A DNA stretch of 47,883 nucleotides from a candidate division LCP-89 bacterium (lineage in GTDB: Bacteria > Electryoneota > B3-LCP): contig JALGVT010000029.1 in assembly GCA_025774555.1 (NCBI GenBank), forward strand, positions 1 through 47,883. The letters are read 5' to 3'. Of the stretch, positions 5,770-34,176 are shown in pieces. Each line of letters opens with the position of its first letter. Within the stretch, counting starts at the first letter, position 1. The notes below the pieces were generated by a model, which did no database searches, had not been told where the DNA came from, and saw nothing but the letters and a program-made list of their open reading frames with translations. The position numbers were made by a program, and so were the translations under genes.

Positions 5770-5885
5770 GTTCTCGTTTTACAATAGTGCGAAACAGATC
5801 AGGGTATAATAATAATATTACGTTAGTGCAAGTTTAGTTCCCGTTGACATTGAGGCAATTAATTGCATATTGCCTTATAATATTT

Positions 5886-5934
5886 GAATAAACAAAGGGC
5901 GTCATGAAACAGATTATTACTGTTTCTGACACCC
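5886..5934 (-). terminator. Intrinsic terminator of the small zinc-ribbon gene: imperfect 15-bp hairpin, with a U-run (uuuguuuauuc) following on the minus strand
   Basis: gggcgtcatgaaacag-attatta-ctgtttctgacaccc read directly. aacaaa precedes it on the plus strand, giving a U-run on the minus strand. Confidence 0.5.
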
Positions 5935-5977
5935 TCATAGTTAAATTTGCCTGAATAGCGATCTTTAAAAGCAGTTA

Positions 5978-6136
5978 TTATTTTTTGCTCGGAAGAATAC
6001 GGAAAACAGAGGTACCGCACTTTTCGCATTTTCCCTTCATCGCTGGGCGACCATTTTTTAAGGTAATCTGCTGTGCATCGACTAAAGTCGTCTTCGCTTT
6101 ACATTTCACACAATAACCTGTTGTAGGTGCAGCCAT
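5978..6136 (-). CDS. 52-aa zinc-ribbon protein (two CxxC pairs, DUF5679-like), absent from the ORF track. Translation: MAAPTTGYCVKCKAKTTLVDAQQITLKNGRPAMKGKCEKCGTSVFRILPSKK
   Basis: Translated by hand. ATG at 6134-6136 (minus) with a strong upstream SD (taaggagg). CxxC...CxxC pattern. A terminator hairpin follows. Confidence 0.6.
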   Translation of the reverse strand: MAAPTTGYCVKCKAKTTLVDAQQITLKNGRPAMKGKCEKCGTSVFRILPSKK

Positions 6137-6378
6137 GGTTAACCTCCTTATTAGGTAGTAACACTGGTTTATATGAGATTTTAAGTTTACTTACATAAAA
6201 ATCTATTCACGATGCGGTTAATATAGCGAGGTCTGAAAACTTATGCAAGGAAAAATACTTAAAAAACTTAAAATTGTTAAATTACTATAATCATTATAAT
6301 CAGATACATAGATTAATACTGCACGATGAGCTGTTTTTTTTTGTTCAAAAATCTCGTTATCACGACCGGCTGTTTCGC

Positions 6379-9228
6379 TTAATTCTTACTTAGTTCTGTG
6401 CGTAAGAATTGTCCTGTGTACGATTTTTTCACACGGCTTACTTCAACAGGGTTACCCTTTGCTATGACCCGTCCACCTTTGTCCCCGCCTTCAGGACCAA
6501 GATCAATGATATGATCAGCGGTTTTTATTACATCGAGGTTGTGTTCAATCACCAGCACCGTATTTCCTTTCTCGACCAGTTCGTGCAAGACGGATAGCAG
6601 CAAGCGGATATCCGCAAAATGCAAACCGGTTGTGGGTTCGTCGAGCAGGTATAAGGTATTGCCGGTCTGAACTTTGGACAATTCAGTGGAGAGTTTAACT
6701 CTCTGGGCTTCGCCGCCAGACAGCGTTGTCGCCTGCTGCCCCAGTTTGATATATCCCAATCCGACTCTGACGATAGTGTCCAGCTTTCTTTTTATAAGAG
6801 GAATGGATTCGAAGAATTCCAGCGCTTCCTCCGCTGTCATATCGAGGATGTCTGCTATTGACTTTCCTCTAAATTTAATTTCCAGTGTTTCGCGGTTGTA
6901 GCGCTTCCCATGGCAAACCTCACAAGGGACATAGACGTCGGGCAGAAAGTGCATCTCGATCTTAATGATGCCGGCTCCCTGACATGCTTCACAGCGACCA
7001 CCCTTTACGTTGAAGCTGAAACGACCCGGCTTATACCCGCGTATCTTTGAATCTTTAAGCTCAGCATAGAGATCGCGTATCGGAGCAAAAAGACCGGTGT
7101 ATGTGGCTGGATTGGAACGAGGCGTGCGTCCAATAGGGGACTGATCTATGTTAATGACCTTGTCGATGTATTCTGTGCCTTTCAGCTCGTTGTAGGGGAG
7201 AGGTCTATTTTTAGATTTATAAAACTGTTGACTTAGCGCACGGTACAATGTTTCATTGATCAAACTGGATTTACCGGAACCGGACACACCGGTAATGCAG
7301 ACGAAACTCCCTAACGGGATCTGGACATTAACAGATTTCAGGTTATTCCCAGTCGCTCCCGAAAGCGATAACTGGTAACCGTTTCCCTGACAGTATCTTT
7401 TCGGTGTTTCGATAAATTCCTTACCCGATAGAAACTGTCCCGTCAGAGATTTGGGATTGGAAGCTATTTCTTCCGGTGTGCCGCAGGCGACGACCTCACC
7501 CCCATGTCTTCCTGCTCCCGGTCCCAAATCTGCGACTACATCAGCGGAGGTAATCATTTCGCGATCGTGTTCAACTACTATGATGGTATTACCAATATCA
7601 CGCAAGCGTTTCAAAGTCTCAATCAGTCTGCGGTTATCCCGCTGGTGCAGACCAATGGAAGGTTCATCCAGAATATAGAGAACTCCCACGAGCTGTGAAC
7701 CAATCTGTGTTGCCAGACGTATGCGCTGCGCTTCGCCGCCAGATATCGTTCCGGCGGATCTGTCGAGTGTTAGATAATCCACTCCAACGTCAATCAGGAA
7801 TTCGAGGCGCGCCTTGATCTCCTTCAATATTTGGTTGGATATTATTTTTTCGACTTCGCTCATCTCCAGGTCTTTGAAGAACTGTAGAACATTACCGATA
7901 GATTTTGAGGTGAGTTCGGAAATATTCAGTTTCCCCAGTCGCACCGAGAGCGCTTCTCGTTTAAGACGCCCGCCTTTGCATTCAGAGCAGGGCAGCGAGC
8001 TCATGAAGCTCTCAATCCAATCGCGGATACCTGCAGAATTGGTCTGCCGGTATCGTCTCTTCAGATTAGGAATAGTTCCTTCCCATTTGCCCGTAAATTC
8101 CCATGATCCTCTGCCGTTTTTATGTACCAGGCGGAATTTGAATTCCTCGTCGCCGGAACCATACAGGCAGATATTTTTCTGTTCTTCCGTAAGATTTCCG
8201 AAGGGCACATCAACAGAGAAATGATGCTCTTGAGATACTTTTTCCAACATACGAAGAAAAATAGAATCGCTCCAGTTATTGGTAGTCACAATTGCGCCTT
8301 CGCGGATGGAAAGCGTTGCATCGGGAACGACTCTGCCTGGATCAATTTCTAAAGTGAAGCCCAGTCCGGAGCATTTGGGACAGGCGCCGTAAGGACTGTT
8401 GAATGAGAAACTGCGCGGCTCCAATTCTTCATAGCTTATTCCACAGTCTGCACAGGAATACTGCTCAGAGAATAGGATTTCCTTTTCATCCGGTATGCTG
8501 ATTATGACAAGTCCCGAGGCGAGTTGCAGCGCGGTTTCAACCGATTCAGTCAATCTGATTCTCAAGTCGCCTTCAACGACTAAGCGATCAACGACTACCT
8601 CGATGGAATGCTTCTTATTTCTGGACAAGCGGATTTCGTCTTCAAGTGATTTTATTTTGCTATCGACACGAACACGAAGGTAACCGTCGCGGCGCAGATT
8701 GGCGAAAACTTCACGGTATTCGCCTTTCCGCCCTCTAATTACGGGAGCGAGTACCATGAAACGGGTCAATTGAGGCAGATTCAGCACTTGATCGACTATC
8801 TGCTGGACGGATTGCTTTTCAATGGGACGACCGCAATTGTAACAGTAGGCTTTGCCAACCCGCGCATAAAGCAGGCGGAGATAATCATATATTTCTGTTA
8901 CAGTCGCAACTGTAGATCGCGGATTGCGGTGTGTTGATTTCTGTTCGATTGATATTGCTGGCGACAATCCTTCGATGAAATCGACGTCCGGTTTTTCCAT
9001 TAAACCGAGAAACTGCCGCGCGTACGCCGAGAGAGATTCCACATAACGTCTCTGACCTTCCGCATAGAGAGTATCGAAGGCGAGGGACGATTTTCCGGAA
9101 CCTGAGATGCCCGTAATCACGATCAGCTTGTTTCTCGGCAGTGTCAGATCGACGTTCTTGAGGTTGTGTTCGCGGGCGCCTTTTATTACGATGGAATCCA
9201 GTGAGGTATTTCGGTTCATTCTGATCAT
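6379..9228 (-). CDS. uvrA: Excinuclease ABC subunit A (UvrA)
   Basis: Two ABC ATPase modules ([18 protein letters not shown]) and zinc-finger cysteines, typical of UvrA. The ORF-track start at 9246 is a TTG. In-frame ATGs lie at 9228 and 9219, so the start is uncertain by a few codons. Confidence 0.9.
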
Positions 9229-9414: not shown

Positions 9415-10107
9415 ATGATGAAGCGCCTTATTCTGGCATTATGTATCTTGCTTATAGCATCGAACGCCATTGCAGAAGAGATCGACGGTGAAGTGAGCGT
9501 ATCGCTTATTGACCCTTATAAAAAGTTTATCCCGGGTTTTTCGATCTCCTTCAGACCCGACATCTTAAGCTGGGATCGGATGTCTTTTGGAGCCGGAGTA
9601 TCGCTGTATGTTTCCAGCCGTTTCAATTATGAAACTACTAACTGGATATGGTATGCAAAGGGATACTATGATCCCGATTCAACGGATTGGTATTATTACG
9701 ATGAAAACCTGGTCGAGTTGGCAAATTATGAGATTTTCACAGAAAGTAGATTTCGTTTTTTAGGTAAGAGCGAAGATGATCACTGGAAAGGGTGGTTGTC
9801 ATTAAATCTTGGCGTCGTGGATCACGCATCAGCCCGTACCACATTCACTACAATTGCTGAGCAACGGGAATATGTTGACACCCTCGGAGTAACTCAATAC
9901 GAGGTTCTACAGACGGATCGATATTCAGTTGATTATAATACAGTGCACAAGCAGAGTTTCTACGCAGCGCCGGGACTTATGATTGGAATCGGTAATTTCT
10001 TCGCGGCGTATAAGCACTGGATATATTTTGACAGCCGGGATTTGATCGATGGAGAACCGTCTCAGACGCTCGGCACTATCAGGGTTGGATATAGATTTTT
10101 ATGGTGA
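9415..10107 (+). CDS. Secreted hypothetical protein, likely an outer-membrane beta-barrel (signal peptide, aromatic-rich, C-terminal ...YRFLW)
   Basis: Signal peptide MMKRLILALCILLIASNAIA. Alternating aromatic/hydrophilic pattern. C-terminal aromatic residue. SD gaggga upstream. Confidence 0.55.
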   Translation: MMKRLILALCILLIASNAIAEEIDGEVSVSLIDPYKKFIPGFSISFRPDILSWDRMSFGAGVSLYVSSRFNYETTNWIWYAKGYYDPDSTDWYYYDENLVELANYEIFTESRFRFLGKSEDDHWKGWLSLNLGVVDHASARTTFTTIAEQREYVDTLGVTQYEVLQTDRYSVDYNTVHKQSFYAAPGLMIGIGNFFAAYKHWIYFDSRDLIDGEPSQTLGTIRVGYRFLW

Positions 10108-10130: not shown

Positions 10131-10291
10131 AAAGGGGCTGTCTCAAAAGCCTATGAACTGTCATTGCTCCGAAGGAGCGCCTTTGGCGCGAACGAAGTGT
10201 GGTAATCTCTTAGTGCTTGTATAATAGGAGATTGCCACGTCATCAGCCGGACGGCTGATTCCTCGCAATGACTCGAAATTATCTTTTGGGA
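10131..10291. repeat. Nested-hairpin intergenic element, copy A. Terminal inverted repeats ggggctgtc / gacaacccc, inner stems gtcattgc/gcaatgac, ggtaatctc/gagattgcc, atcagcc/ggctgat
   Basis: Inverted repeats read directly. Shares GGGCTGTC TIRs and the gaacgaag / raatgac motifs with the element at 20172-20300. Sits between convergent gene ends. Confidence 0.55.
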
Positions 10292-10321
10292 CAACCCCTT
10301 TTATTTTAATCTGGAAAAATC

Positions 10322-10822
10322 CTATCGGTTCAATTCAGATGAACAGGAGACCAATCTCGATCCCCTTCTGATTGCCGCTTTCTCAAACCGTCTCTTTTCA
10401 TCAGGAGTTTCCGGGATTACTGACGGAATCGGCGTTGGTTTGCCTTCATCGTCGAGCGCCACAAAGGAAAGGTACGCAGAAGCGGTATGCTTGCGTGTGC
10501 CGGTCTGCGTATTTTCGGAAAATACCTTGACGCCGACTTCAAGGGAGGTTTTAAATGCGCGGTTAACGGATGCTTTCAACAACACGAGGTCGCCCATTTT
10601 TATCGGCGATAGAAAGGCAAGTGAATCCACCGCGGCAGTAACCACGAGTCGCTTGGTATGCCGGCGAGCCGCAATGGTGCCTGCGATATCAATCAACTGC
10701 ATGACCTTGCCGCCGAACAGCGTGCCGAAGTTATTCGTGTCGTTGGGCAGAACTACTTCAGTCATTTCAACAACAGAGTCCCTGACAGGTTTAGCAGGAT
10801 ATTCGGATTCGTATTTTGTCAT
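10322..10822 (-). CDS. Acyl-CoA thioesterase, hotdog fold (YciA/BFIT-like)
   Basis: Motif NxxGxLFGGxxMxxxDxAG is characteristic of acyl-CoA thioester hydrolases. Start trimmed to the ATG at 10820-10822 (MTKYESEY...) to avoid overlapping the upstream gene. Confidence 0.7.
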   Translation of the reverse strand: MTKYESEYPAKPVRDSVVEMTEVVLPNDTNNFGTLFGGKVMQLIDIAGTIAARRHTKRLVVTAAVDSLAFLSPIKMGDLVLLKASVNRAFKTSLEVGVKVFSENTQTGTRKHTASAYLSFVALDDEGKPTPIPSVIPETPDEKRRFEKAAIRRGSRLVSCSSELNR

Positions 10823-10857
10823 AGTGCAGCCCTTTTGATCGGATAGTTTGCTGATGA

Positions 10858-11190
10858 TCACTGCAGAGGTAAAAACGCTTTCATTGCGCAATAGAACACT
10901 AAAATGGTGCTAACGAGAAGCGATACCAGTGACAACCCCAACATCGTTTTCATCTTCAATGATTTTACAAAGGCATAAAAACTCAGTATCAGCGCAGGGA
11001 TAGGAAGAAAAATAATTATTGCCTTGAACAGTGATTCGGGCATATAATTCCAGAAACGGGCTGCGTATCCTATATTTCCAGTGGAGCCGGTCTGCAGCAT
11101 AAGCCAGAAGGCGAGCGGAGGCAGCAGCAGCAGGAGGGCAACCCATAGCAGGCGCTTATTGTTTCGATTGTTTTTCAGGCTATCTGTCAT
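10858..11190 (-). CDS. Small integral membrane protein (3 predicted TM helices), function unknown
   Basis: Hydrophobic segments. ATG at 11188-11190. Confidence 0.45.
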   Translation of the reverse strand: MTDSLKNNRNNKRLLWVALLLLLPPLAFWLMLQTGSTGNIGYAARFWNYMPESLFKAIIIFLPIPALILSFYAFVKSLKMKTMLGLSLVSLLVSTILVFYCAMKAFLPLQ

Positions 11191-11211: not shown

Positions 11212-12615
11212 TTATAGATGAATTGCTCTGCCAAAGGCATCCAGAGCCGCTTCGGCAACAGCCTCTGAGAGAGTGGGATGAGCGTGAATAGTTGAGGTTA
11301 TCGCTTTGAACGGATCAGGCTGAAGCTGTGCCACTCCCAGTTCCGCTATAAGTTCTGTGGCTTCAGGTCCCACAATGTGAGCACCGATGAGTTTTGAGCC
11401 TGCTTCATCAAATATCAGCTTTATCAGTCCATCGCGTTCACCTGAAGCGACAGCTCTGCTGGAAGCGACGACAGGAAATCTCCCTACTTTTATTTTATAT
11501 CCACGTTCAAGAGCCTGTTTCTCGGTAAGACCCACCGAAGCAACCTGAGGCTGGCAATACGTGCATGAAGGCACCTTATCCGGTTCAACTTTGTGCGTTG
11601 ACAGTCCTGCCATATTTTCCACGGCTGCAATCCCTTCGTGTGAAGCCGCGTGCGCCAGCATCGGCGCGCCGATCAAATCGCCAATCGCCCATATATTCTC
11701 AGCGCTCGTGCAATAGACATCATCGACTTTCACAAACCCCTTTTCTATTACGATCCCGACATCTTCCAGACCTATCCCATCAGAATTTGCCTGCACGCCT
11801 ATAGCCACCAGACAGAGATCGGCTTCCCATGATTCATCACCAGCAGGTGTCGATCCAAATGCTTTCACGCCTTCAGCCGATTTTTCAATACGCTGCACTT
11901 TTGTATCAGTGAATACCTTTATCCGGTCTTTTTTTAGTTTCTTATGGACAATATCCACGATTTCTGTGTCTTCCAAGGGCAGAATCTGCGGCATCATTTC
12001 TATAAGTATGACGTCTGTCCCGATGGTGTTATAAAAATAAGCGAACTCCACGCCGATAGCTCCAGCGCCGATTATAATCATGGATTTCGGCTGCGTTGAC
12101 AGAGTCATTGCTTGACGATAAGAAATCAGCTTCTCCTCATCAAGTTCTAATCCCGGCAGGTTGCGGGGTCTTGCGCCAGTCGCCAGTAAAAACTTATTAG
12201 ACTGGATTGAAACGATCTCTTCGGCTTCGGCGTTCGATACCGCTATAGTGTGCATGTTTTTGAAACGACCTGTGCCGTTAAAAACTTCGATGTTATTCTT
12301 CTTTAACAGGAAACCGACGCCTTTTGATAGACGGCTGGCTATCTGGCGGCTGCGCTTGATTATGGCAGGGAAGTCTATTTCGATTTCGCCTGTCTTAATA
12401 CCAAAAGAATTGGATTTCTTGATAGTATTCAGGACTTCAGCGGACTTCAGTAGAGCTTTGGTGGGAATACATCCCCAGTTCAGGCAGATGCCACCGATAT
12501 TTTCTCGTTCAACGACAGCTACCTTCATTCCAAGTTGTGCGGCTCGAATGGCTGCCACATATCCGCCGGGTCCTGACCCCAGCACTGTTAGATCATATTT
12601 TTGGTTTTCTGTCAT
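11212..12615 (-). CDS. lpdA: Dihydrolipoyl dehydrogenase (E3)
   Basis: FAD-binding GSGPGGY, redox-active disulfide GGICLNWGCIPTK, and a C-terminal dimerisation-domain HAHP motif. Confidence 0.9.
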   Translation of the reverse strand: MTENQKYDLTVLGSGPGGYVAAIRAAQLGMKVAVVERENIGGICLNWGCIPTKALLKSAEVLNTIKKSNSFGIKTGEIEIDFPAIIKRSRQIASRLSKGVGFLLKKNNIEVFNGTGRFKNMHTIAVSNAEAEEIVSIQSNKFLLATGARPRNLPGLELDEEKLISYRQAMTLSTQPKSMIIIGAGAIGVEFAYFYNTIGTDVILIEMMPQILPLEDTEIVDIVHKKLKKDRIKVFTDTKVQRIEKSAEGVKAFGSTPAGDESWEADLCLVAIGVQANSDGIGLEDVGIVIEKGFVKVDDVYCTSAENIWAIGDLIGAPMLAHAASHEGIAAVENMAGLSTHKVEPDKVPSCTYCQPQVASVGLTEKQALERGYKIKVGRFPVVASSRAVASGERDGLIKLIFDEAGSKLIGAHIVGPEATELIAELGVAQLQPDPFKAITSTIHAHPTLSEAVAEAALDAFGRAIHL

Positions 12616-17772: not shown

Positions 17773-20142
17773 ATGTTAGCAAGAACACCAGTCCCCGAAA
17801 AAACAGCATCGGATCTTTTTAACGTAGCCAGAAACGCTGTAAAGCCACAGAAAAAGCGCAGTGTGTCCAGACTCGAACTGCCGAAGATAGAACGCGCCGA
17901 CAAATATACTTATAGCGAAAACAGTCTTGCGGTTCTGGAACGAAGATATTTAGCGAAAGATAAAAACGGCATCGTCGTGGAAACGCCTGAGGATATGTTC
18001 CGCCGTGTGGCGAAACATATCGCCTCTGCAGAGATGGTTTTCGATCCAGAACTGACTCATGCAGACCTTGCTGAAATAGAGGAGACTTTTTACCACTTGA
18101 TGGCATCGATGGATTTTCTCCCTAATTCACCCACACTGATGAATGCCGGAAGGGATCTGGGTCAGTTATCCGCTTGTTTCGTTCTTCCGGTTGGTGACAG
18201 CATGGAAGATATTTTCAACGCGATAAAATACACTGCCTTGATCCATAAAAGCGGCGGCGGAACCGGATTCTCTTTTTCACGTCTCCGCCCCAAAGACAGC
18301 ATGGTGAAATCGACAGCAGGCACAGCATCAGGACCCGTTTCATTCATGTCCGTATTTAACGCAGCGACAGAAACGGTGAAACAGGGCGGCACGAGGCGCG
18401 GCGCGAACATGGCAATCCTGCGTGTCGATCATCCCGACATAGAGCACTTCATCGACTGTAAAAAAGGCGAGCACGCTCTGAACAACTTCAATATATCTGT
18501 CGCAGTTACTGATGAGTTTATGGATGCCGTGAAAAACCGGTCGAAATTTTCACTGAAAGATCCGAATACAGGAAAAACCGTCAAAGAAATCGTTGCCACG
18601 AAATTATTTGATAAGATCGTGGAAAATGCCTGGAGCAACGGCGAGCCCGGCATCGTTTTCCTCGATTCCGTCAACAAGAGTAATCCAACGCCGGAAATTG
18701 GTGATATAGAATCGACTAATCCGTGCGGTGAACAACCGTTGCTGCCATACGAATCATGTAATCTCGGCTCTATCAATTTGAATCACGTGGTGAAGGATGA
18801 ACAGATCGACTGGGATAAACTGGAGCGGATAATAGCACTCTCGGTGAGATTTTTGGATGACGTAATCGAAGTGAATAAATACCCGCTTGCCGAAATAGGG
18901 GAGATGACCAGAAAAAACCGTAAAATCGGTCTGGGTGTAATGGGATTCGCAGATCTACTTTATCAGCTCAATATTCCCTATAATTCTGCGGAAGGCATTA
19001 AGCTCGGCGAAGAGATAATGAGTATGGTACAGAAGGCGGCTCACCGAGCGTCAAAAGAATTGGCGGCAAAGCGCGGCACATTCTCAAACTACGATAAGTC
19101 AATCTTCGAAACTCCTATACGGAATGCAACTATAACAACGATTGCTCCCACTGGCACTCTTTCGATGATTGCAGATTGTTCCGGCGGCGTTGAACCAGTA
19201 TTCAGTCTGGTCTATGTGAAGCGAGTTATGGATAAAAACGATTTACTTTACACCAATCGCTACTTTGAGGAAGCGCTGGATCGAGCCGGGATTTACAGCA
19301 CGGAGCTGCTGAATAAGGTCGAAGCGTGTCATTCACTTAAGGAGGTAGATGACATTCCAGAGCCGCTGCAGCGTATCTTTGTTACTTCTCACGACATTGC
19401 GCCTGAATGGCACGTGCGCATGCAGGCTGCCTTTCAGAAACACACAGACAATGCAGTATCGAAAACGATCAACTTTCCTCATAATGCGACCACTTCCGAC
19501 GTAAAAAAGGCATATATGCTGGCATACGATCTCGGCTGCAAAGGTTTAACTGTTTACCGTGATGGTTCGCGTCAGGAACAGGTTATGCATAAGGGCAAAA
19601 CCGTTGCAGAAAAAAACGGTAAACCTGCAGAACGACCACTGCTCAAACCCCGCCATAGACCTGCCGTAACGCAGGGCATGACTGAAAGAGTCAATACCGG
19701 CGACGGCGCTATATACATCACGATCAATGAGGACGAACAGGGCATCTGTGAAGTATTCACCTCGATTGGTAAAGCTGGCGGGAACATGTCTGCGCAGGCT
19801 GAAGCGATCTCAAGATTGATCTCTCTATCCCTTAGATCCGGCATGGATCCAAGGGACATCATTAAACACCTCAAGGGGATATCAGGTCCGAATCCAGTCT
19901 GGGAGAACGGAACGCTAATTACATCCAGTCCTGATGCCATTGCCAAAGCGATGGAAAGATATCTTCAGCGCCGAGAGGCAAATGGAACGCTCAAAGCGCC
20001 TGTGAAAGTCGTGCAACCAGCATTCGAAAAAGACACCAACCTGATCGAAATTCCTGATCAGTGTCCTGATTGCGGCGGTGAGATTGCTCACGAAGACGGC
20101 TGTATCGTATGCAGATCGTGCGGCTTTACTCGCTGCGGATAG
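17773..20142 (+). CDS. nrdJ: Class II (adenosylcobalamin-dependent) ribonucleotide reductase NrdJ with C-terminal zinc ribbon
   Basis: RNR active-site motifs (NPCGEQPL, SCNLGSINL). C-terminal CPDCGG...CIVCRSCG. Good SD (aaggat). Confidence 0.9.
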   Translation: MLARTPVPEKTASDLFNVARNAVKPQKKRSVSRLELPKIERADKYTYSENSLAVLERRYLAKDKNGIVVETPEDMFRRVAKHIASAEMVFDPELTHADLAEIEETFYHLMASMDFLPNSPTLMNAGRDLGQLSACFVLPVGDSMEDIFNAIKYTALIHKSGGGTGFSFSRLRPKDSMVKSTAGTASGPVSFMSVFNAATETVKQGGTRRGANMAILRVDHPDIEHFIDCKKGEHALNNFNISVAVTDEFMDAVKNRSKFSLKDPNTGKTVKEIVATKLFDKIVENAWSNGEPGIVFLDSVNKSNPTPEIGDIESTNPCGEQPLLPYESCNLGSINLNHVVKDEQIDWDKLERIIALSVRFLDDVIEVNKYPLAEIGEMTRKNRKIGLGVMGFADLLYQLNIPYNSAEGIKLGEEIMSMVQKAAHRASKELAAKRGTFSNYDKSIFETPIRNATITTIAPTGTLSMIADCSGGVEPVFSLVYVKRVMDKNDLLYTNRYFEEALDRAGIYSTELLNKVEACHSLKEVDDIPEPLQRIFVTSHDIAPEWHVRMQAAFQKHTDNAVSKTINFPHNATTSDVKKAYMLAYDLGCKGLTVYRDGSRQEQVMHKGKTVAEKNGKPAERPLLKPRHRPAVTQGMTERVNTGDGAIYITINEDEQGICEVFTSIGKAGGNMSAQAEAISRLISLSLRSGMDPRDIIKHLKGISGPNPVWENGTLITSSPDAIAKAMERYLQRREANGTLKAPVKVVQPAFEKDTNLIEIPDQCPDCGGEIAHEDGCIVCRSCGFTRCG

Positions 20143-20171
20143 GATAACCTAATCAGGGTGAATAAATAAAA

Positions 20172-20300
20172 AAGGGCTGTCCTGAACGGGTCACTCTGAG
20201 TGAAACGAAGAGTCTCGAAAAAACTATAAAGTTAAGATAGACAAGAGATTCTTCACTGCGCCTTCGGCTTGCTCAGAATGACATTGAACCTTCTATGACA
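20172..20300. repeat. Nested-hairpin intergenic element, copy B. TIRs gggctgtc / gacagcc, inner stem gtcactctgag / ctcagaatgac
   Basis: Read directly. Homologous in architecture and motifs to 10131-10291. Sits between the convergent nrdJ and decarboxylase-beta gene ends. Ends in ttgtatttttatttt like copy A. Confidence 0.55.
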
Positions 20301-20313
20301 GCCTCTTGTATTT

Positions 20314-21459
20314 TTATTTTCCAAGGAAGTATGAAAGCAGAATTCCTGCTGCTGTGGCAGAGCCTATAACACCAGCAACATTGGGACCCATGGCGTGCAT
20401 CATGAGGTAGTTGTTGGGATCATACTGTCTTCCAACATTGTGGACGACTCTGGCGCTGTCCGGCACCGCGCTTACTCCCGCAGCGCCTATCAGGGGATTT
20501 ATCTTGTTTTCACTATTGAGAAATAAATTCATAATTTTCGCAAAGATGACACCTCCGGCAGTAGCAATGACGAAGCTGATCGCGCCAAGTGAAAAAATGA
20601 AAATCGATTGCGGTGTCAAGAAATACTGCGCTTGAGTTGAAGCTCCCACAGTTAATCCTAATAAAATAGTAACGATGTCAATTAGAGACGTTCCCGCCGT
20701 TTTAGCGAGTCTCTCCGTTACGCCGCTCTCCTTCAGGATATTTCCAAAGAAAAGCATTCCAAGCAGTGGTAAAGCTCCAGGTGAAATAAAGCATGTAGCT
20801 AAGAGCCCCAGGATAGGGAAGAGTATCTTCTCGCCTTTTGACACACTTCGGCTGGGTTTCATCCGTATGCGTTTCTCTTTAGAGGTAGTGAGCAGTTTCA
20901 TGACCGGCGGCTGGATGACCGGGACAAGCGCCATATATGAATAAGCTGCAATCGCGATGGCGCCCATCAGGTGGGGCGCTAATTTTGAAGAAGTAAAGAT
21001 TGCGGTCGGTCCATCAGCTCCACCGATTATCCCGATGGCAGCCGCTTCTTCGGGACTGAAGCCGAAAAAAAGAGCGCCGAGAAGTGTGATGAATATTCCA
21101 ATCTGAGCCGCCGCGCCCAGCAGGACAAGTTTCGGATTTGACAACAGAGCGGAGAAGTCGGATAGCGCTCCGATCCCTAAAAATATCAGAGGTGGATAGA
21201 CTCCTTTTAAAACACCGAAATACAGGTAGCTTAAGACGGAACCGTTTTCATATATTCCTATTTGAAGATTTGCGTCGATGGCGTAAGGGATGTTGCCGAT
21301 CAGTATCCCGAAACCGAGCGGAACGAGAAGAAGGGGTTCATAGTCCTTTTTAATAGCGAGATAGAGAAAGATTAAACCCACTGCGATCATGACTAAGTTT
21401 TTCCATATATCAGGCTGGGCAAACCCGGTATATGACAGGAATTTTATTAAGATATCCAT
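20314..21459 (-). CDS. Na+-translocating decarboxylase beta subunit (OadB/MmdB/GcdB family membrane subunit)
   Basis: Polytopic membrane protein in an operon with a carboxyltransferase, an OadG-like subunit and a BCCP. The ORF-track start is TTG. The ATG at 21457-21459 has GGAG 8 nt upstream. Confidence 0.8.
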
Positions 21460-21492
21460 ACGATGCTCCAATCGTGGGAAAACCCGAGATAA

Positions 21493-31016: not shown

Positions 31017-31375
31017 GGGGACGACTTGGTTTCGACGGGATAGGAGGAAGCTGGATCAGCAGGTCGGGGAGAGCGTGACCCCGTTAAAACCCGCTAAATT
31101 CACAAATGCCGAAAATAACGGCTATGCCTTAGCTGCTTAAAAAAAAGCGGCTACGTCCGACCGAACCTTCGCCCATCTGGGACGGATTCGGGCGACATCT
31201 CGATGGGCTGGCGTGACGCAGTGTCTCGATGCGCCGCGTGAGAACTACGAGACTGGCTTTTCTTTCGATCTGTCGATGGATTAAAAGGAAGGCGAGACTT
31301 AAACATCGACTAAGCCTGTAGCGGGTCCTTCAGTCACTATTTCGGACGCGGGTTCGATTCCCGCCGTCTCCACAA
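31017..31375 (+). ncRNA. ssrA: tmRNA (SsrA), one-piece. Tag peptide reading frame ...AENNGYALAA* (gcc gaa aat aac ggc tat gcc tta gct gct taa at 31108-31140)
   Basis: 5' GGGGACGACUUGGUUUCGACGGG pairs with the 3' ...GGACGCGGGUUCGAUUCCCGCCGUCUCCA(CAA) tRNA-like acceptor/T-arm. The internal ORF ends in the canonical YALAA tag. Confidence 0.9.
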
Positions 31376-31694
31376 ATGCTAAAATTAATCCCCTGATAAC
31401 AATTACCATGTATGATTACTTTGTATGTTTTGAAAGGGAAAGCCGGAAAACGATATGTCGGGATAACGAATAATATAATGTAGTCGAATTATCGGTAATT
31501 TCAGTTTAATCCACACAGAGACTTTCCCTGATTATAAAAGTGCCAGGGAACGGGAAAAGTTCTTAAAATCGGGTAAGGGAAGAAACTGGTTAAATGATTT
31601 TGTAGAAACGACGCAGCCCGCCTGAGGCGGGTAAAGTTCGACTTGTGCGCCTTAGGCGCATTCCGCCTTAGGCGCATTCCCGCCGTCTCCACAA
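31376..31694 (+). mobile_element. Integration scar at the ssrA 3' end. A 300-bp insert is bounded by a 19-nt direct repeat of the tmRNA 3' terminus (attcccgccgtctccacaa at 31357-31375 and 31676-31694), with a perfect 16-nt tandem duplication (gccttaggcgcattcc x2, 31649-31680)
   Basis: Exact 19-nt and 16-nt repeats read directly. The displaced copy is followed by what looks like the original ssrA terminator. This is the standard signature of site-specific integration into tmRNA. No integrase gene is present, so it is a remnant. Confidence 0.6.
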
Positions 31695-31696
31695 GG

Positions 31697-31734
31697 AAGC
31701 CACTTCACTCATTGGGGGAGTGGCTTTTATTATA
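31697..31734 (+). terminator. Intrinsic terminator: 9-bp stem aagccactt / gagtggctt followed by a T-run (ttttattat)
   Basis: Read directly. Lies immediately after the displaced tmRNA 3'-end repeat. Confidence 0.55.
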
Positions 31735-31744
31735 CGGATATACT

Positions 31745-32968
31745 ATGAACGATCTACTTATCTGCATCGACCGCAAGGATTTTCCAGCGGCTATACCACA
31801 TAAATTCTATCTCCCTGAATCGTCGCCTGTAGTCTGCTGTGGTCCCGTCGAGATTTTGCAAGGTAAACGTGTTACCATCCTTAATTCCCGCCAATCACCA
31901 CGACTGCATAAGGATAGCGCCTGGGCATTGAACACCATAAAGGCGCTGCGAAATCTCGATCCCAAAGAGACAACTCTGGTCACCAGTCTGGGAACTATCG
32001 CCTGGGATTTCCTTACCTGGACAGGGGGTAAGCTGAGGTTTAAGATAATACTTGTATTCCCCGGTGGAAGCGCTCAGAATTTCAAGCTGTCGCGAACCAG
32101 AGCAATTATGGATCTGGGATTGGATGATCGAATGACACTCGCAATTCGACCGCTGGTGCTTAAGAGCTACAAAAAAAAGAGCGAAGTAAATGCACTACGT
32201 GATCAGTGGATTGTTTCGCTGAGTCATACGATCATGCCATTAAGCGTGCGGACGGGCGGTAATCTCGATACATATTTAAATAGCGCACAACTTAAAACTA
32301 CTGCTGTTTGCCGCGATTATGCAATTCAATATGAAAAGCTTCACCAAGAGCGGAAACCATCTCTGCCGAAGAAGATTGTCACTCCCGAATGGTACAAGAC
32401 AAACGACTTCCTCATCCATTGGACGAGATCGTGCGTCGGTCCCTGGCCTGATGAAAGCAGAGCAGAGCACTTTGAAAGGGTAGTCGCATCAGGTGATTCC
32501 GGCTTGAGCGGGTTGGATACATTGAGACGAATCATCAAAGAGGGAGTTATTCGTGCTTCAAGCAGGTTGATAAGAGACAAGTATGAAGTTGTCCCCTTTA
32601 CTGAAACTTTACCGCAGGAACTCCCTGATTTGATACGATGGCGAGCAGGTCTGCGCAGGTGGACTTTTGAACCTTACGGAATCGCTCTGGCGAGATCTAA
32701 ACTACTTGAAATACGGGCTAAGCCGGTCATATATGGTGATATCAGAGATTATGAAGCGATGTCTGAGGAAGATAAGCCTTTTTTCCAAGTGGCAGGAACA
32801 GGGAAACGGGATTGGAAAAAGGAGAGGGAATGGAGGGTTCAAGGCGACGTTAAACTAAGTTTATTTGGTAAAAATGAAGCTGTCTATATTGTCAACAATA
32901 TAGACGCAGTACAGTCGCTGCGGGAATTGAATACTCATCAGGTTTTAAGTTTAAGTCCGCATGAATAA
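31745..32968 (+). CDS. Divergent DprA/SLOG-superfamily Rossmann-domain protein fused to an uncharacterised ~200-aa C-terminal domain
   Basis: N-terminal half is collinear with DprA Rossmann motifs in degenerate form: NSRQSPR for GSRxxSxYG, TTLVTSLGTIAW for VVSGlAxGID, GGKLRFKIILVFPGG for GGxTIAVLGxG, FKLSRTRAIMDLG for FpxRNRIIagL. The C-terminal half (HWTRS...EPYGIALARS...EWRVQGDVKL) matches nothing recognised. The ORF-track start at 31643 overlaps the att repeat and terminator, so the ATG at 31745 is used. Confidence 0.5.
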   Translation: MNDLLICIDRKDFPAAIPHKFYLPESSPVVCCGPVEILQGKRVTILNSRQSPRLHKDSAWALNTIKALRNLDPKETTLVTSLGTIAWDFLTWTGGKLRFKIILVFPGGSAQNFKLSRTRAIMDLGLDDRMTLAIRPLVLKSYKKKSEVNALRDQWIVSLSHTIMPLSVRTGGNLDTYLNSAQLKTTAVCRDYAIQYEKLHQERKPSLPKKIVTPEWYKTNDFLIHWTRSCVGPWPDESRAEHFERVVASGDSGLSGLDTLRRIIKEGVIRASSRLIRDKYEVVPFTETLPQELPDLIRWRAGLRRWTFEPYGIALARSKLLEIRAKPVIYGDIRDYEAMSEEDKPFFQVAGTGKRDWKKEREWRVQGDVKLSLFGKNEAVYIVNNIDAVQSLRELNTHQVLSLSPHE

Positions 32969-33009
32969 TATGAGACTGTTGAAAAACATTATAATGAGTA
33001 TCCAACTGT

Positions 33010-33110
33010 CACTCCCGCATGGCGTAGCCATCCTCCGTAGAAGTCCTATGGAGAGTCCAGAAATATCAGTTACATAGCTGGATTCCCGTTTTCACGGGAA
33101 TGACATAATT
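33010..33110. repeat. Nested-hairpin intergenic element, copy C (partial or divergent). Stems actgtcactcccg / cgggaatgacat, atggc/gccat, attcccgt/acgggaat
   Basis: Shares aactgtcaYt..cc and gaatgacat motifs and the ttgtatttt end with copies A and B. Sits between the convergent SLOG-like gene and rlmN. Confidence 0.4.
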
Positions 33111-33153: not shown

Positions 33154-34176
33154 TCAACCGATTTTTCCCGCTAACTGCCCGCACGCAGCCATGATTTCAG
33201 ATCCGCGGCTACGCCTCAGCGTCAGCGTGATTCTCTCCTTCTGGAAAACCTCGTAAAACCTGTTAAAAACAGCGTCCCAGTCAGGAGCTTTCCTTTTCCG
33301 CTTATCTATGGGATTTATGGGGATCAGGTTTAACTTGCAGGGCACTCGCACCAGCCATGTTTTCAATGCCTTTATCATTTCAGGTTTATCATTGACGCCG
33401 TGCATTAAGGTATATTCAAAGGTGATGCGATACCCGTTGATCTTCTGGAAGAATACAGCCGCTTCAATGACTTCATCGATGGGATATTTCTTATTAATCG
33501 GCATCAGTTGAGTGCGTAGATCGTCAACGGGCGCGTTCAGGGAAATCGCCAGCTTCACATTCAAACCTTCATTTGCAAGTTGTTTGATACCGGGGACGAC
33601 GCCAGCTGTGGAGACAGTCATACGCCGCTGCGATAAAGCAGGACCGTTAGAGGATGACAACACACGAATTGCTTTGATTAAATTATCATAATTTAACAGC
33701 GGCTCTCCCATTCCCATAAAGACAATATTGCGTAAAAAGGGTTCTGTCCTAAGGCGGCGAAATTGAACAACCTGATCGATGATCTCGCCGGAAGTTAAAT
33801 TTCGTTTAAAGCCGATTTTCCCCGTAGCACAGAAAGTGCAGGCCAGGGGACACCCGACCTGAGTTGAAACGCAGAGCGTGGCGTGCTCTTTTTCAGGTAT
33901 GTGAACTGATTCAATAGTCAAATCATCATGCAATCTGAATAGCGCCTTGGTGGCGCCATCCGGAGAGGATTGCATCTCGCTGCACTTCAGTAAGTCTAAC
34001 GGTTCAAAAGCAGTCAATCGTTCCCGTAAGCGTAGGGGAAGATCGGTCATTTCTTCGACCGTCGATACTCCGCGTTTGAACAGGGCGGCATAGATCTGCC
34101 TGCCGTGAAAAGGTTTTTCACCCCAATCCGAGACGAGGTTCTGCAATTCGTTCTGGTCTAAGTCCTTTAACCGCAC
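33154..34176 (-). CDS. rlmN: 23S rRNA m2A2503 / tRNA m2A37 methyltransferase RlmN (radical SAM)
   Basis: GCPLACTFCATG radical SAM motif, a C-terminal Cys (MAACGQL) and overall collinearity with RlmN/Cfr. GTG start at 34174-34176. Confidence 0.85.
   Translation of the reverse strand: MRLKDLDQNELQNLVSDWGEKPFHGRQIYAALFKRGVSTVEEMTDLPLRLRERLTAFEPLDLLKCSEMQSSPDGATKALFRLHDDLTIESVHIPEKEHATLCVSTQVGCPLACTFCATGKIGFKRNLTSGEIIDQVVQFRRLRTEPFLRNIVFMGMGEPLLNYDNLIKAIRVLSSSNGPALSQRRMTVSTAGVVPGIKQLANEGLNVKLAISLNAPVDDLRTQLMPINKKYPIDEVIEAAVFFQKINGYRITFEYTLMHGVNDKPEMIKALKTWLVRVPCKLNLIPINPIDKRKRKAPDWDAVFNRFYEVFQKERITLTLRRSRGSEIMAACGQLAGKIG

Follow-up and report, generated by a model that had tools for sequence, protein, structure and literature searches.

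What are the long hairpins that occupy the spaces between convergent genes in this genome fragment, and do they belong together? The window studied here is an entire contig of 47,883 nt, to which all window counts below refer, with a G+C content of 44.9%. Its gene content is housekeeping throughout, and a domain search finds a T9SS sorting domain among its ORFs, which assigns the organism to the FCB group. All three of its clear convergent spacers are occupied by strongly folding structures of 100-175 nt, designated elements A, B and C. The original prediction had placed these elements between convergent 3' ends, and both the sequence and the gene calls bear this out. Element A lies between a gene at 9415-10107 (+) and a 4HBT gene at 10322-10891 (-). 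Element B is flanked by an RNR gene at 17773-20142 (+) and an OAD-beta gene at 20314-21471 (-), and element C by a gene at 31643-32968 (+) and rlmN at 33154-34176 (-). This placement is one point for the reading that A, B and C are independent, elaborate bidirectional intrinsic terminators whose shared motifs reflect chance or base composition. The original prediction preferred dispersed REP/MITE-like repeats or a small structured RNA family. The three elements are built from the following parts, where features without a strand are marked as unstranded.

10131-10306, unstranded: element A, the whole composite, consisting of A-run, outer stem, unit pair, outer stem and T-run (sequence and RNA fold)
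10134-10149, unstranded: left outer stem arm of A, GGGGCTGTCTCAAAAG, which pairs with 10283-10298 (sequence and fold)
10160-10207, + strand: unit A+, TGTC-ATTGC-(34-nt loop with two small hairpins)-GTAAT-C, of the long-loop ATTGC subtype with one G.T pair (unit scan)
10208-10229, unstranded: spacer between the unit tails of A, which holds TTGTATAAT (sequence; tail gap 23 nt)
10230-10272, - strand: unit A-, AGTC-ATTGC-GAGG(hairpin)GACGTG-GCAAT-C (unit scan)
10283-10298, unstranded: right outer stem arm of A, CTTTTGGGACAACCCC, followed by TTTTATTTT (sequence and fold)
About 20168-20321, unstranded: element B (sequence and RNA fold)
20174-20181, unstranded: left outer stem arm of B, GGGCTGTC, preceded by an A-run, which pairs with 20297-20303 (sequence and fold)
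20190-20214, + strand: unit B+, GGTC-ACTCT-GAGTGAAACGA-AGAGT-C, an ACT/AGT variant (unit scan; weak covariance-model match, E = 8.6)
20247-20282, - strand: unit B-, TGTC-ATTCT-GAGCAAGCCGAAGGCGCAGTGA-AGAAT-C (unit scan; covariance model 13.8 bits, E = 0.19)
20297-20303, unstranded: right outer stem arm of B, GACAGCC, with a T-rich tail after it on the + strand (sequence and fold)
About 33004-33108, unstranded: element C (sequence and RNA fold)
33008-33057, + strand: unit C+, TGTC-ACTC-(38-nt loop with two small hairpins)-GAGT-C-CAG, a degenerate ACT/AGT variant with a 4-bp arm (pair scan)
33077-33107, - strand: unit C-, TGTC-ATTCCCGT-GAAA-ACGGGAAT-CCAG, that is, TGTCATTCCCGTGAAAACGGGAATCCAG, a canonical SRM/NTS-type hairpin

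Each element consists of two hairpin units of 25-50 nt with the form GTC-AYT(stem)-loop-(stem)ART-C, located on opposite strands and arranged tail-to-tail. A unit begins with a 5' GTC, continues into a palindromic AYT...ART stem that encloses a variable loop, often with a small hairpin of its own, and ends with a 3' C. All six units in the window show the GTC, the paired AYT..ART stem and the 3' C, which documents their presence rather than their conservation, since the scanner demanded these bases. The GTC heads point outward in all three doublets, and the tails are separated by 23 (A), 33 (B) and 24 (C) nt. The paired motifs described earlier are found as reported: GTCATTGC with GCAATGAC in A, GTCACTCTGAG with CTCAGAATGAC in B and GTCACTCCCG with CGGGAATGAC in C.

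Because the units lie on opposite strands with their heads out and their tails 23-33 nt apart, each region has two possible folds, a pair of local hairpins or a single long nested hairpin. The second form arises from the similarity of the two partners, whose outer halves can pair with each other, and it is the structure that the original prediction had recognized. The predicted RNA fold of element A has an energy of -78.4 kcal/mol (z = -7.6 versus shuffled sequence), and elements B and C also fold more stably than their shuffles (z = -5.2 and -3.3). When the unit pairs alone are folded as DNA on the two strands, element A reaches z = -4.6/-4.1 and element C z = -3.4/-3.1, whereas B stays at -1.2. 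The strong folding stands, but what folds in each copy is two short, inverted hairpin units, which an outer stem sometimes encloses, rather than a single long hairpin.

The outer stem is prominent in two of the elements. In A and B the doublet is enclosed by a G+C-rich stem flanked by an A-run and a T-run, a terminator-like arrangement that resembles the plain terminators of related genomes and lends further support to the independent-terminator reading. For element B, a T-run is present on the minus-strand side as well (the complement of 20160-20173). The outer stem of C is weak and comprises 7 bp only. Inclusion of the full stem moves the right end of A from 10291, as first given, to about 10306. 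The right arm reads CTTTTGGGACAACCCC, pairs imperfectly with GGGGCTGTCTCAAAAG and differs from the GACAGCC that had been assigned to this end. A simple terminator scan that allows loops of 3-8 nt calls none of the three elements, which counts against ordinary terminators; the scan misses them because their loops span 116-133 nt. The near-consensus TTGTATAAT that had been pointed out in a loop of A sits in the variable spacer between the units, and a promoter scan did not call it.

The number of units in the window is modestly greater than expected by chance, and their arrangement is far more so. Six hairpin units are present versus 1.8 expected from dinucleotide shuffles, and 6 of 500 shuffles reach this number. 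In contrast to the 0.03 tail-to-tail unit pairs expected from the same kind of shuffling, three are observed, a result that independent terminators do not explain. The GTCAYT...ARTGAC pairing is a feature beyond chance. Pairing percentages and the invariance of the GTC and the 3' C are partly a matter of construction, since the unit scanners required the GTC, a paired stem and the 3' C.

The short words shared by the elements, which had been taken as evidence for a repeat family, carry little of this signal. One 8-mer, GGGCTGTC, is common to two regions of 150 nt, which is close to the chance expectation. The motif gaacgaag is exact in A, but B reads aaacgaag. Similarly, GGGCTGTC had been proposed as a terminal inverted repeat that defines the family. 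This candidate was rejected for lack of enrichment upstream of units in other loci, where GGCTGTC occurs once next to family units versus 0.73 occurrences expected. Both the near-chance 8-mer and the failure of GGCTGTC as a family feature count in favor of independent terminators. The 12-mer CTGTCTCAAAAG from the left arm of A also occurs just upstream of a unit in another contig (L124; loci outside the window carry L numbers) that has no protein similarity to the window. A direct-repeat scan of the whole window does not group A, B and C, and their loops and spacers differ. The absence of a long direct repeat common to the three indicates that none of them is a recent copy of another. Direct reading reveals no target-site duplication at the flanks of A, B or C, for which a test for such duplications had been suggested, and none in the listed metagenome copies.

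The identity of the units emerged from a full-text search with GTCATTCC, which pointed to a study of the Neisseria Transformation Sequence (NTS or dRS3) and the nucleases that recognize it (PMC11893778; Nat Commun 2025;16:2388). That paper gives the NTS consensus as CGTCATTCCCGCGMAVGCGGGAATCYRG and a degenerate search string for the wider class of Ssn-related motif (SRM) hairpins, HGTCWYN(0-2)YYVSBRHN(0-5)WNVSBRGN(0-2)RNCYNB. It also describes SsnA, a GIY-YIG protein of 94 aa. This protein binds the hairpin when the DNA is single-stranded and cleaves a few bases upstream of it; the three bases that precede the palindrome on its 5' side are important for cleavage, and the C on its 3' side is important for binding. 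Unit C- (33078-33105, minus strand) fits the SRM string as given there, for which 0.18 matches are expected in shuffles, and differs from the given NTS consensus only at base 1 and at one compensated stem pair. The other five units of the window fail this string, owing to overlong loops or to stems of other subtypes. Literature searches with the strings GTCATTGCGAG and GTCATTCTGAG returned unrelated primer sequences only.

The original prediction had also suggested a covariance model, and one built from 58 short-loop units, all from loci outside the window, confirms the assignment in part. It recognizes C- with 41.9 bits (E = 6e-9), such that the copy first regarded as partial carries the most canonical unit of all. 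In the alignment, seven of the eight stem pairs are changed on both sides, in sequences that had been selected for pairing. The same short-loop model gives a marginal score for B- and a weak one for B+ (E values listed above), and it does not detect the A units. The latter were assigned instead through counts of exact heads and tails that define subtypes. The A- subtype, GTCATTGC..GCAATC, occurs 15 times in other loci (1.7 Mb) versus 0.54 expected, and the B- subtype with an ATTCT stem, GTCATTCT..AGAATC, occurs seven times elsewhere in the same 1.7 Mb, again versus 0.54 expected. For comparison with C+, the ACTCC subtype GTCACTCC..GGAGTC has eight occurrences in other loci. Other phyla also have the A- and B- subtypes, unlike what independent terminators would predict, as well as a loop grammar of the form GAGG-hairpin-CGTG or GAG..CGA together with A- and B-type heads and tails.

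The correspondence with SRM/NTS hairpins extends over the whole unit: a 5' GTC, a palindrome beginning with ATTCC, a short GNRA-like loop, GGAAT, and then C and YRG. Both kinds of hairpin are repeated, lie outside genes and occur in several phyla, and in both cases small GIY-YIG genes occur with units on either side. There are also differences. The units described here stand in tail-to-tail doublets with a spacer of about 23 nt and are often nested in an outer inverted repeat. Relative to the SRM form given in the paper, four of the six window units have long loops (11-34 nt, with ATTGC or ATTCT/ACTCT stems), and a fifth, C+, is degenerate with a loop of 38 nt. The host belongs to the FCB group, in a lineage that is uncultured, and the 48 kb of the window show no ssn gene. 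Nevertheless, A, B and C are a new occurrence of an already known repeat family and not a new kind of element.

The distribution of the units argues for dispersal. At least 120 unrelated metagenome stretches, drawn from many samples, contain the exact 24-nt core of C-, an identity over this length that independent terminators would not produce. Partners within 140 nt were sought for the 115 core copies with full flanks. Sixty of them (52%) have a tail-to-tail partner versus three in shuffled flanks, and head-to-head (14 of 115) and tandem (15 of 115) partners make up smaller numbers. The median tail-to-tail gap among these doublets is 23 nt. The partner often belongs to another stem subtype (ATT in 36 cases, ATC in 13 and ATA in 7). 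In all-against-all comparisons, similarity between unrelated contigs does not extend beyond the doublet and the outer inverted repeat around it, which implies that doublets are commonly enclosed by an outer stem, as they are in A and B. Whole doublets also recur with unrelated flanks: those of L156 and L195 are 89% identical over 120 nt, and those of L108 and L175 are 84% identical over 151 nt.

Two further arrangements were observed among these loci. An outer inverted repeat, GATGGnnTCGTAAAAAGTC ... GACTTTTTACGAGACCATC, encloses SRM doublets in L099, L108, L115, L127, L133, L136, L145, L166, L192, L206 and L207, and its core CGTAAAAAGTC lies no more than 50 nt upstream of 12 units versus 0.07 expected. 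These composites form a distinct subfamily that is absent from the window. In addition, heterotypic doublets composed of a ATTCCCGT unit and a ATCCTCAA..TTGGGGAT long-loop partner form tandem arrays with a period of about 105-110 nt in L097 (5890-6250), L178 (about 6000-6400 and 11260-11300) and L205 (about 1380-1500).

A preference for convergent spacers was considered as a family trait and rejected. By crude ORF calls, the spacers of 59 family units are tandem in 44 cases, convergent in 8 and divergent in 7, with units on either strand. It is more likely that the placement of all three window elements in convergent spacers reflects the tolerance of a compact genome for insertions at 3' ends rather than a property of the family.

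Related genomes provide a view of the same sites without the elements. Relatives with 73-79% RNR identity retain synteny around the three sites, and their orthologous convergent spacers are 4-95 nt long versus 172-215 nt in the window. None of these spacers contains a hairpin unit. Three of them (L087, L085 and L001) carry a plain terminator with an A-run, stem and T-run, and the others have no clear hairpin. Because relatives have such short, plain terminators at these positions, the window elements are best regarded as insertions. Moreover, relatives that manage with terminators of 20-30 nt, or with none, speak against the need for independent, elaborate terminators at these sites. From this comparison of sequences, the elements appear most simply to be lineage-specific insertions or expansions, into or along with terminator hairpins. 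The original preference for dispersed repeats over three independent terminators is thus upheld by the occurrence of units in many unrelated genomes, by the recurrence of doublets with unrelated flanks and by the plain terminators at orthologous sites.

Elsewhere in the loci of these relatives, units are sparse. None is present in L001, L085 or L087. L002 has a single canonical unit, CTGTCATTCCTGCGAAGGCAGGAATCCAT, at 7851-7880, downstream of RNR as is element B, although the downstream gene differs. L083 (GCA_026394195.1, 73% RNR identity) has one doublet at 6661-6749 in a divergent spacer upstream of lon. It combines an ACT/AGT unit with an ATT/AAT unit, the same pairing as in B and C of the window but in a promoter-side context.

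A possible origin of the doublets is indicated by loci in which two units bracket a gene. In four contigs (L173, L184, L165 and L186), an ORF of 96-105 aa encoding a GIY-YIG protein lies between two heads-out units, within 4-44 nt of them. Searches of PDB and NCBIfam gave no subfamily assignment for the GIY-YIG proteins. The units of the window stand as terminal inverted repeats that match the ends of these cassettes. Since the geometry of a doublet is that of the unit-bracketed GIY-YIG cassette minus its gene, the doublets look like gene-less miniatures of the cassette. Domain searches among the window ORFs detected no transposase, no Y1 RAYT and no intact GIY-YIG gene, and no ssn-type ORF (a small single-domain GIY-YIG protein of the Ssn family, cd10448) was found in the 48 kb searched.

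We assign a probability of about 0.7 to the reading that A, B and C are tail-to-tail inverted doublets of NTS-like SRM units; the parts of it that we infer are their derivation as gene-less miniatures of an SRM-ssn-SRM cassette, nicking by a cognate Ssn protein and a role in termination. According to this mechanism, the doublets would be MITE-like miniatures of the cassette that enter, or arrive together with, terminator hairpins at the 3' ends of genes. By analogy with the Ssn study (PMC11893778), each unit would be bound on single-stranded DNA by a cognate Ssn-type GIY-YIG nuclease. Nicks by this enzyme would be placed a few bases 5' of the GTC and would therefore fall at the two outer borders of the doublet. 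Once transcribed, the composite hairpins and their T-runs probably still terminate or stabilize both convergent mRNAs.

A stronger version of this model is tentative, and we consider it rather doubtful. In this version the doublets are non-autonomous miniatures of a mobile cassette whose sole gene encodes an Ssn-type GIY-YIG nuclease. They would be mobilized in trans by nicks at their outer edges on opposite strands, would have spread across phyla and would prefer the loops of terminator hairpins as targets. If so, SRM-ssn-SRM would be a class of transposable element not recognized before, driven by a GIY-YIG protein and accompanied by MITEs of its own.

The placement of A, B and C in the SRM family has several implications. 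The Ssn/SRM system, known so far from Neisseria and from a survey of reference genomes, is extended to an uncultured FCB-group lineage, and one exact 24-nt unit proves to be common to many environmental genomes. Annotation also benefits, because long intergenic hairpins, and the spurious small ORFs that they give rise to, can be labeled as SRM doublets rather than novel RNAs. Doublets, their intergenic context and terminators are not described in the searchable text of the Ssn paper, and the doublet and miniature-cassette architecture is only a moderately new point. The predominance of the inverted doublet, with the geometry of the gene-bearing cassette, does provide a concrete model for how SRMs multiply, a question that the Ssn paper leaves open.

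Other explanations fit the evidence less well. It is improbable that the elements are REPINs or BIMEs, in which REP doublets are mobilized by a RAYT, an IS200/IS605-like Y1 transposase, and not by a GIY-YIG nuclease. There are many similarities to such elements of E. coli and Pseudomonas. Both consist of oriented short palindromes with a conserved 5' head, form inverted doublets and long hairpins, are extragenic and often lie at 3' ends, where copies can stabilize mRNA or terminate transcription, and both include a single-copy gene flanked by the same repeats. The parallel is drawn in the Ssn study itself (PMC11893778). However, the unit seen here equals the experimentally defined target of Ssn, the gene between heads-out units in the four contigs encodes a GIY-YIG protein and not a Y1 transposase, and the window ORFs, searched over 48 kb, contain no Y1 transposase domain and no RAYT. 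The head of enterobacterial REPs is GTAG, whereas that of the units is GTC-A. The units belong to another sequence family, and their enzyme is apparently a GIY-YIG nuclease rather than an HUH/Y1 transposase.

Neisseria intergenic mosaic elements (NIMEs) and Correia-type MITEs provide a second comparison for the SRM doublets. These are likewise composite intergenic repeats built from dRS3/NTS-type inverted repeats and have a miniature, non-autonomous organization. In NIMEs, RS blocks of 50-150 bp are flanked by copies of dRS3. Here, in contrast, two units face each other across a short spacer that is not conserved. The sequences of A, B and C do not resemble Correia elements, and they show no visible target-site duplication.

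We regard it as quite improbable that A, B and C are structured non-coding RNAs, such as small RNAs or 3'-UTR elements, whose folds act in RNA and for which the DNA repeats are secondary. The very low RNA folding energies and the covarying stem pairs would suit such a role. So would the long-range outer pairing of B and C, which as read from the sequence involves U.G on the minus strand and C.A on the plus. This asymmetry is explained, however, by the pairing of an ACT/AGT-variant unit with an ATT/AAT unit, which also occurs in L083. With one unit on each strand, a doublet favors no single transcript orientation, and units elsewhere are found on either strand, whether the spacer is tandem, convergent or divergent. 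Between A, B and C, neither loops nor spacers show conservation. A scan of the window against Rfam 15 yields only a tmRNA at the gathering score and nothing credible around A even at E values up to 10. The small structured RNA family proposed as an alternative in the original prediction finds no support here: the elements are strand-symmetric and have no Rfam match, and the repeat family occurs in all gene contexts.

Least probable is the reading that the three elements are independent terminators, which as a full account is largely refuted by the spread of the C- core, the partner pairs and the recurrence of subtypes, although a terminator or mRNA-stabilizing role may plausibly be retained, judging from A and B, which have outer stems and, on either strand, T-runs.

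The tmRNA detected with Rfam is located at 31017-31375. Directly after it, at 31412-31631, are the remains of a small GIY-YIG gene, recognized as two tblastn segments in different frames with a stop at 31481. The remnant is followed at 31636-31695 by a second, imperfect tmRNA 3' end with an extra TGCGCC..GGCGCA hairpin. At the same place, L002 has an intact GIY-YIG gene of 110 aa (11480-11900). A scan of genome contigs (loci L003-L082) yielded 257 relatives of the remnant with 52-74% identity, hosted by Desulfobacterota, Zixibacteria, Planctomycetota, Verrucomicrobiota, Cloacimonadota, CPR and a Bathyarchaeia MAG. The tRNA/tmRNA T-arm sequence GGGTTCGA is enriched upstream, where 37 of 87 cases have it, and GGGCTTGTGCGCC..GGCGCATTCGAATCC is enriched downstream. 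Judging from these flanks, the clade looks like a homing-type cassette of about 0.4 kb that is aimed at tRNA/tmRNA 3' ends and rebuilds the end. The remnant was considered as the cognate nuclease of the window units and rejected, since it belongs to a different clade, one that lies in or after tRNA/tmRNA T-arms and whose link to SRMs is weak. Matches to the SRM regular expression near this clade number 11 versus 4.2 in 995 kb, such that an association is not clear.

One other small gene may have escaped annotation. In a spacer of 610 nt (5770-6378), the minus strand at 5985-6136 contains an ORF of about 50 aa, below the 80-aa limit of the ORF list, with a good GGAGG ribosome binding site. Its product has two CxxC pairs (MAAPTTGYCVKCKAKTTLVDAQQITLKNGRPAMKGKCEKCGTSVF...) and is likely a small zinc-ribbon protein.
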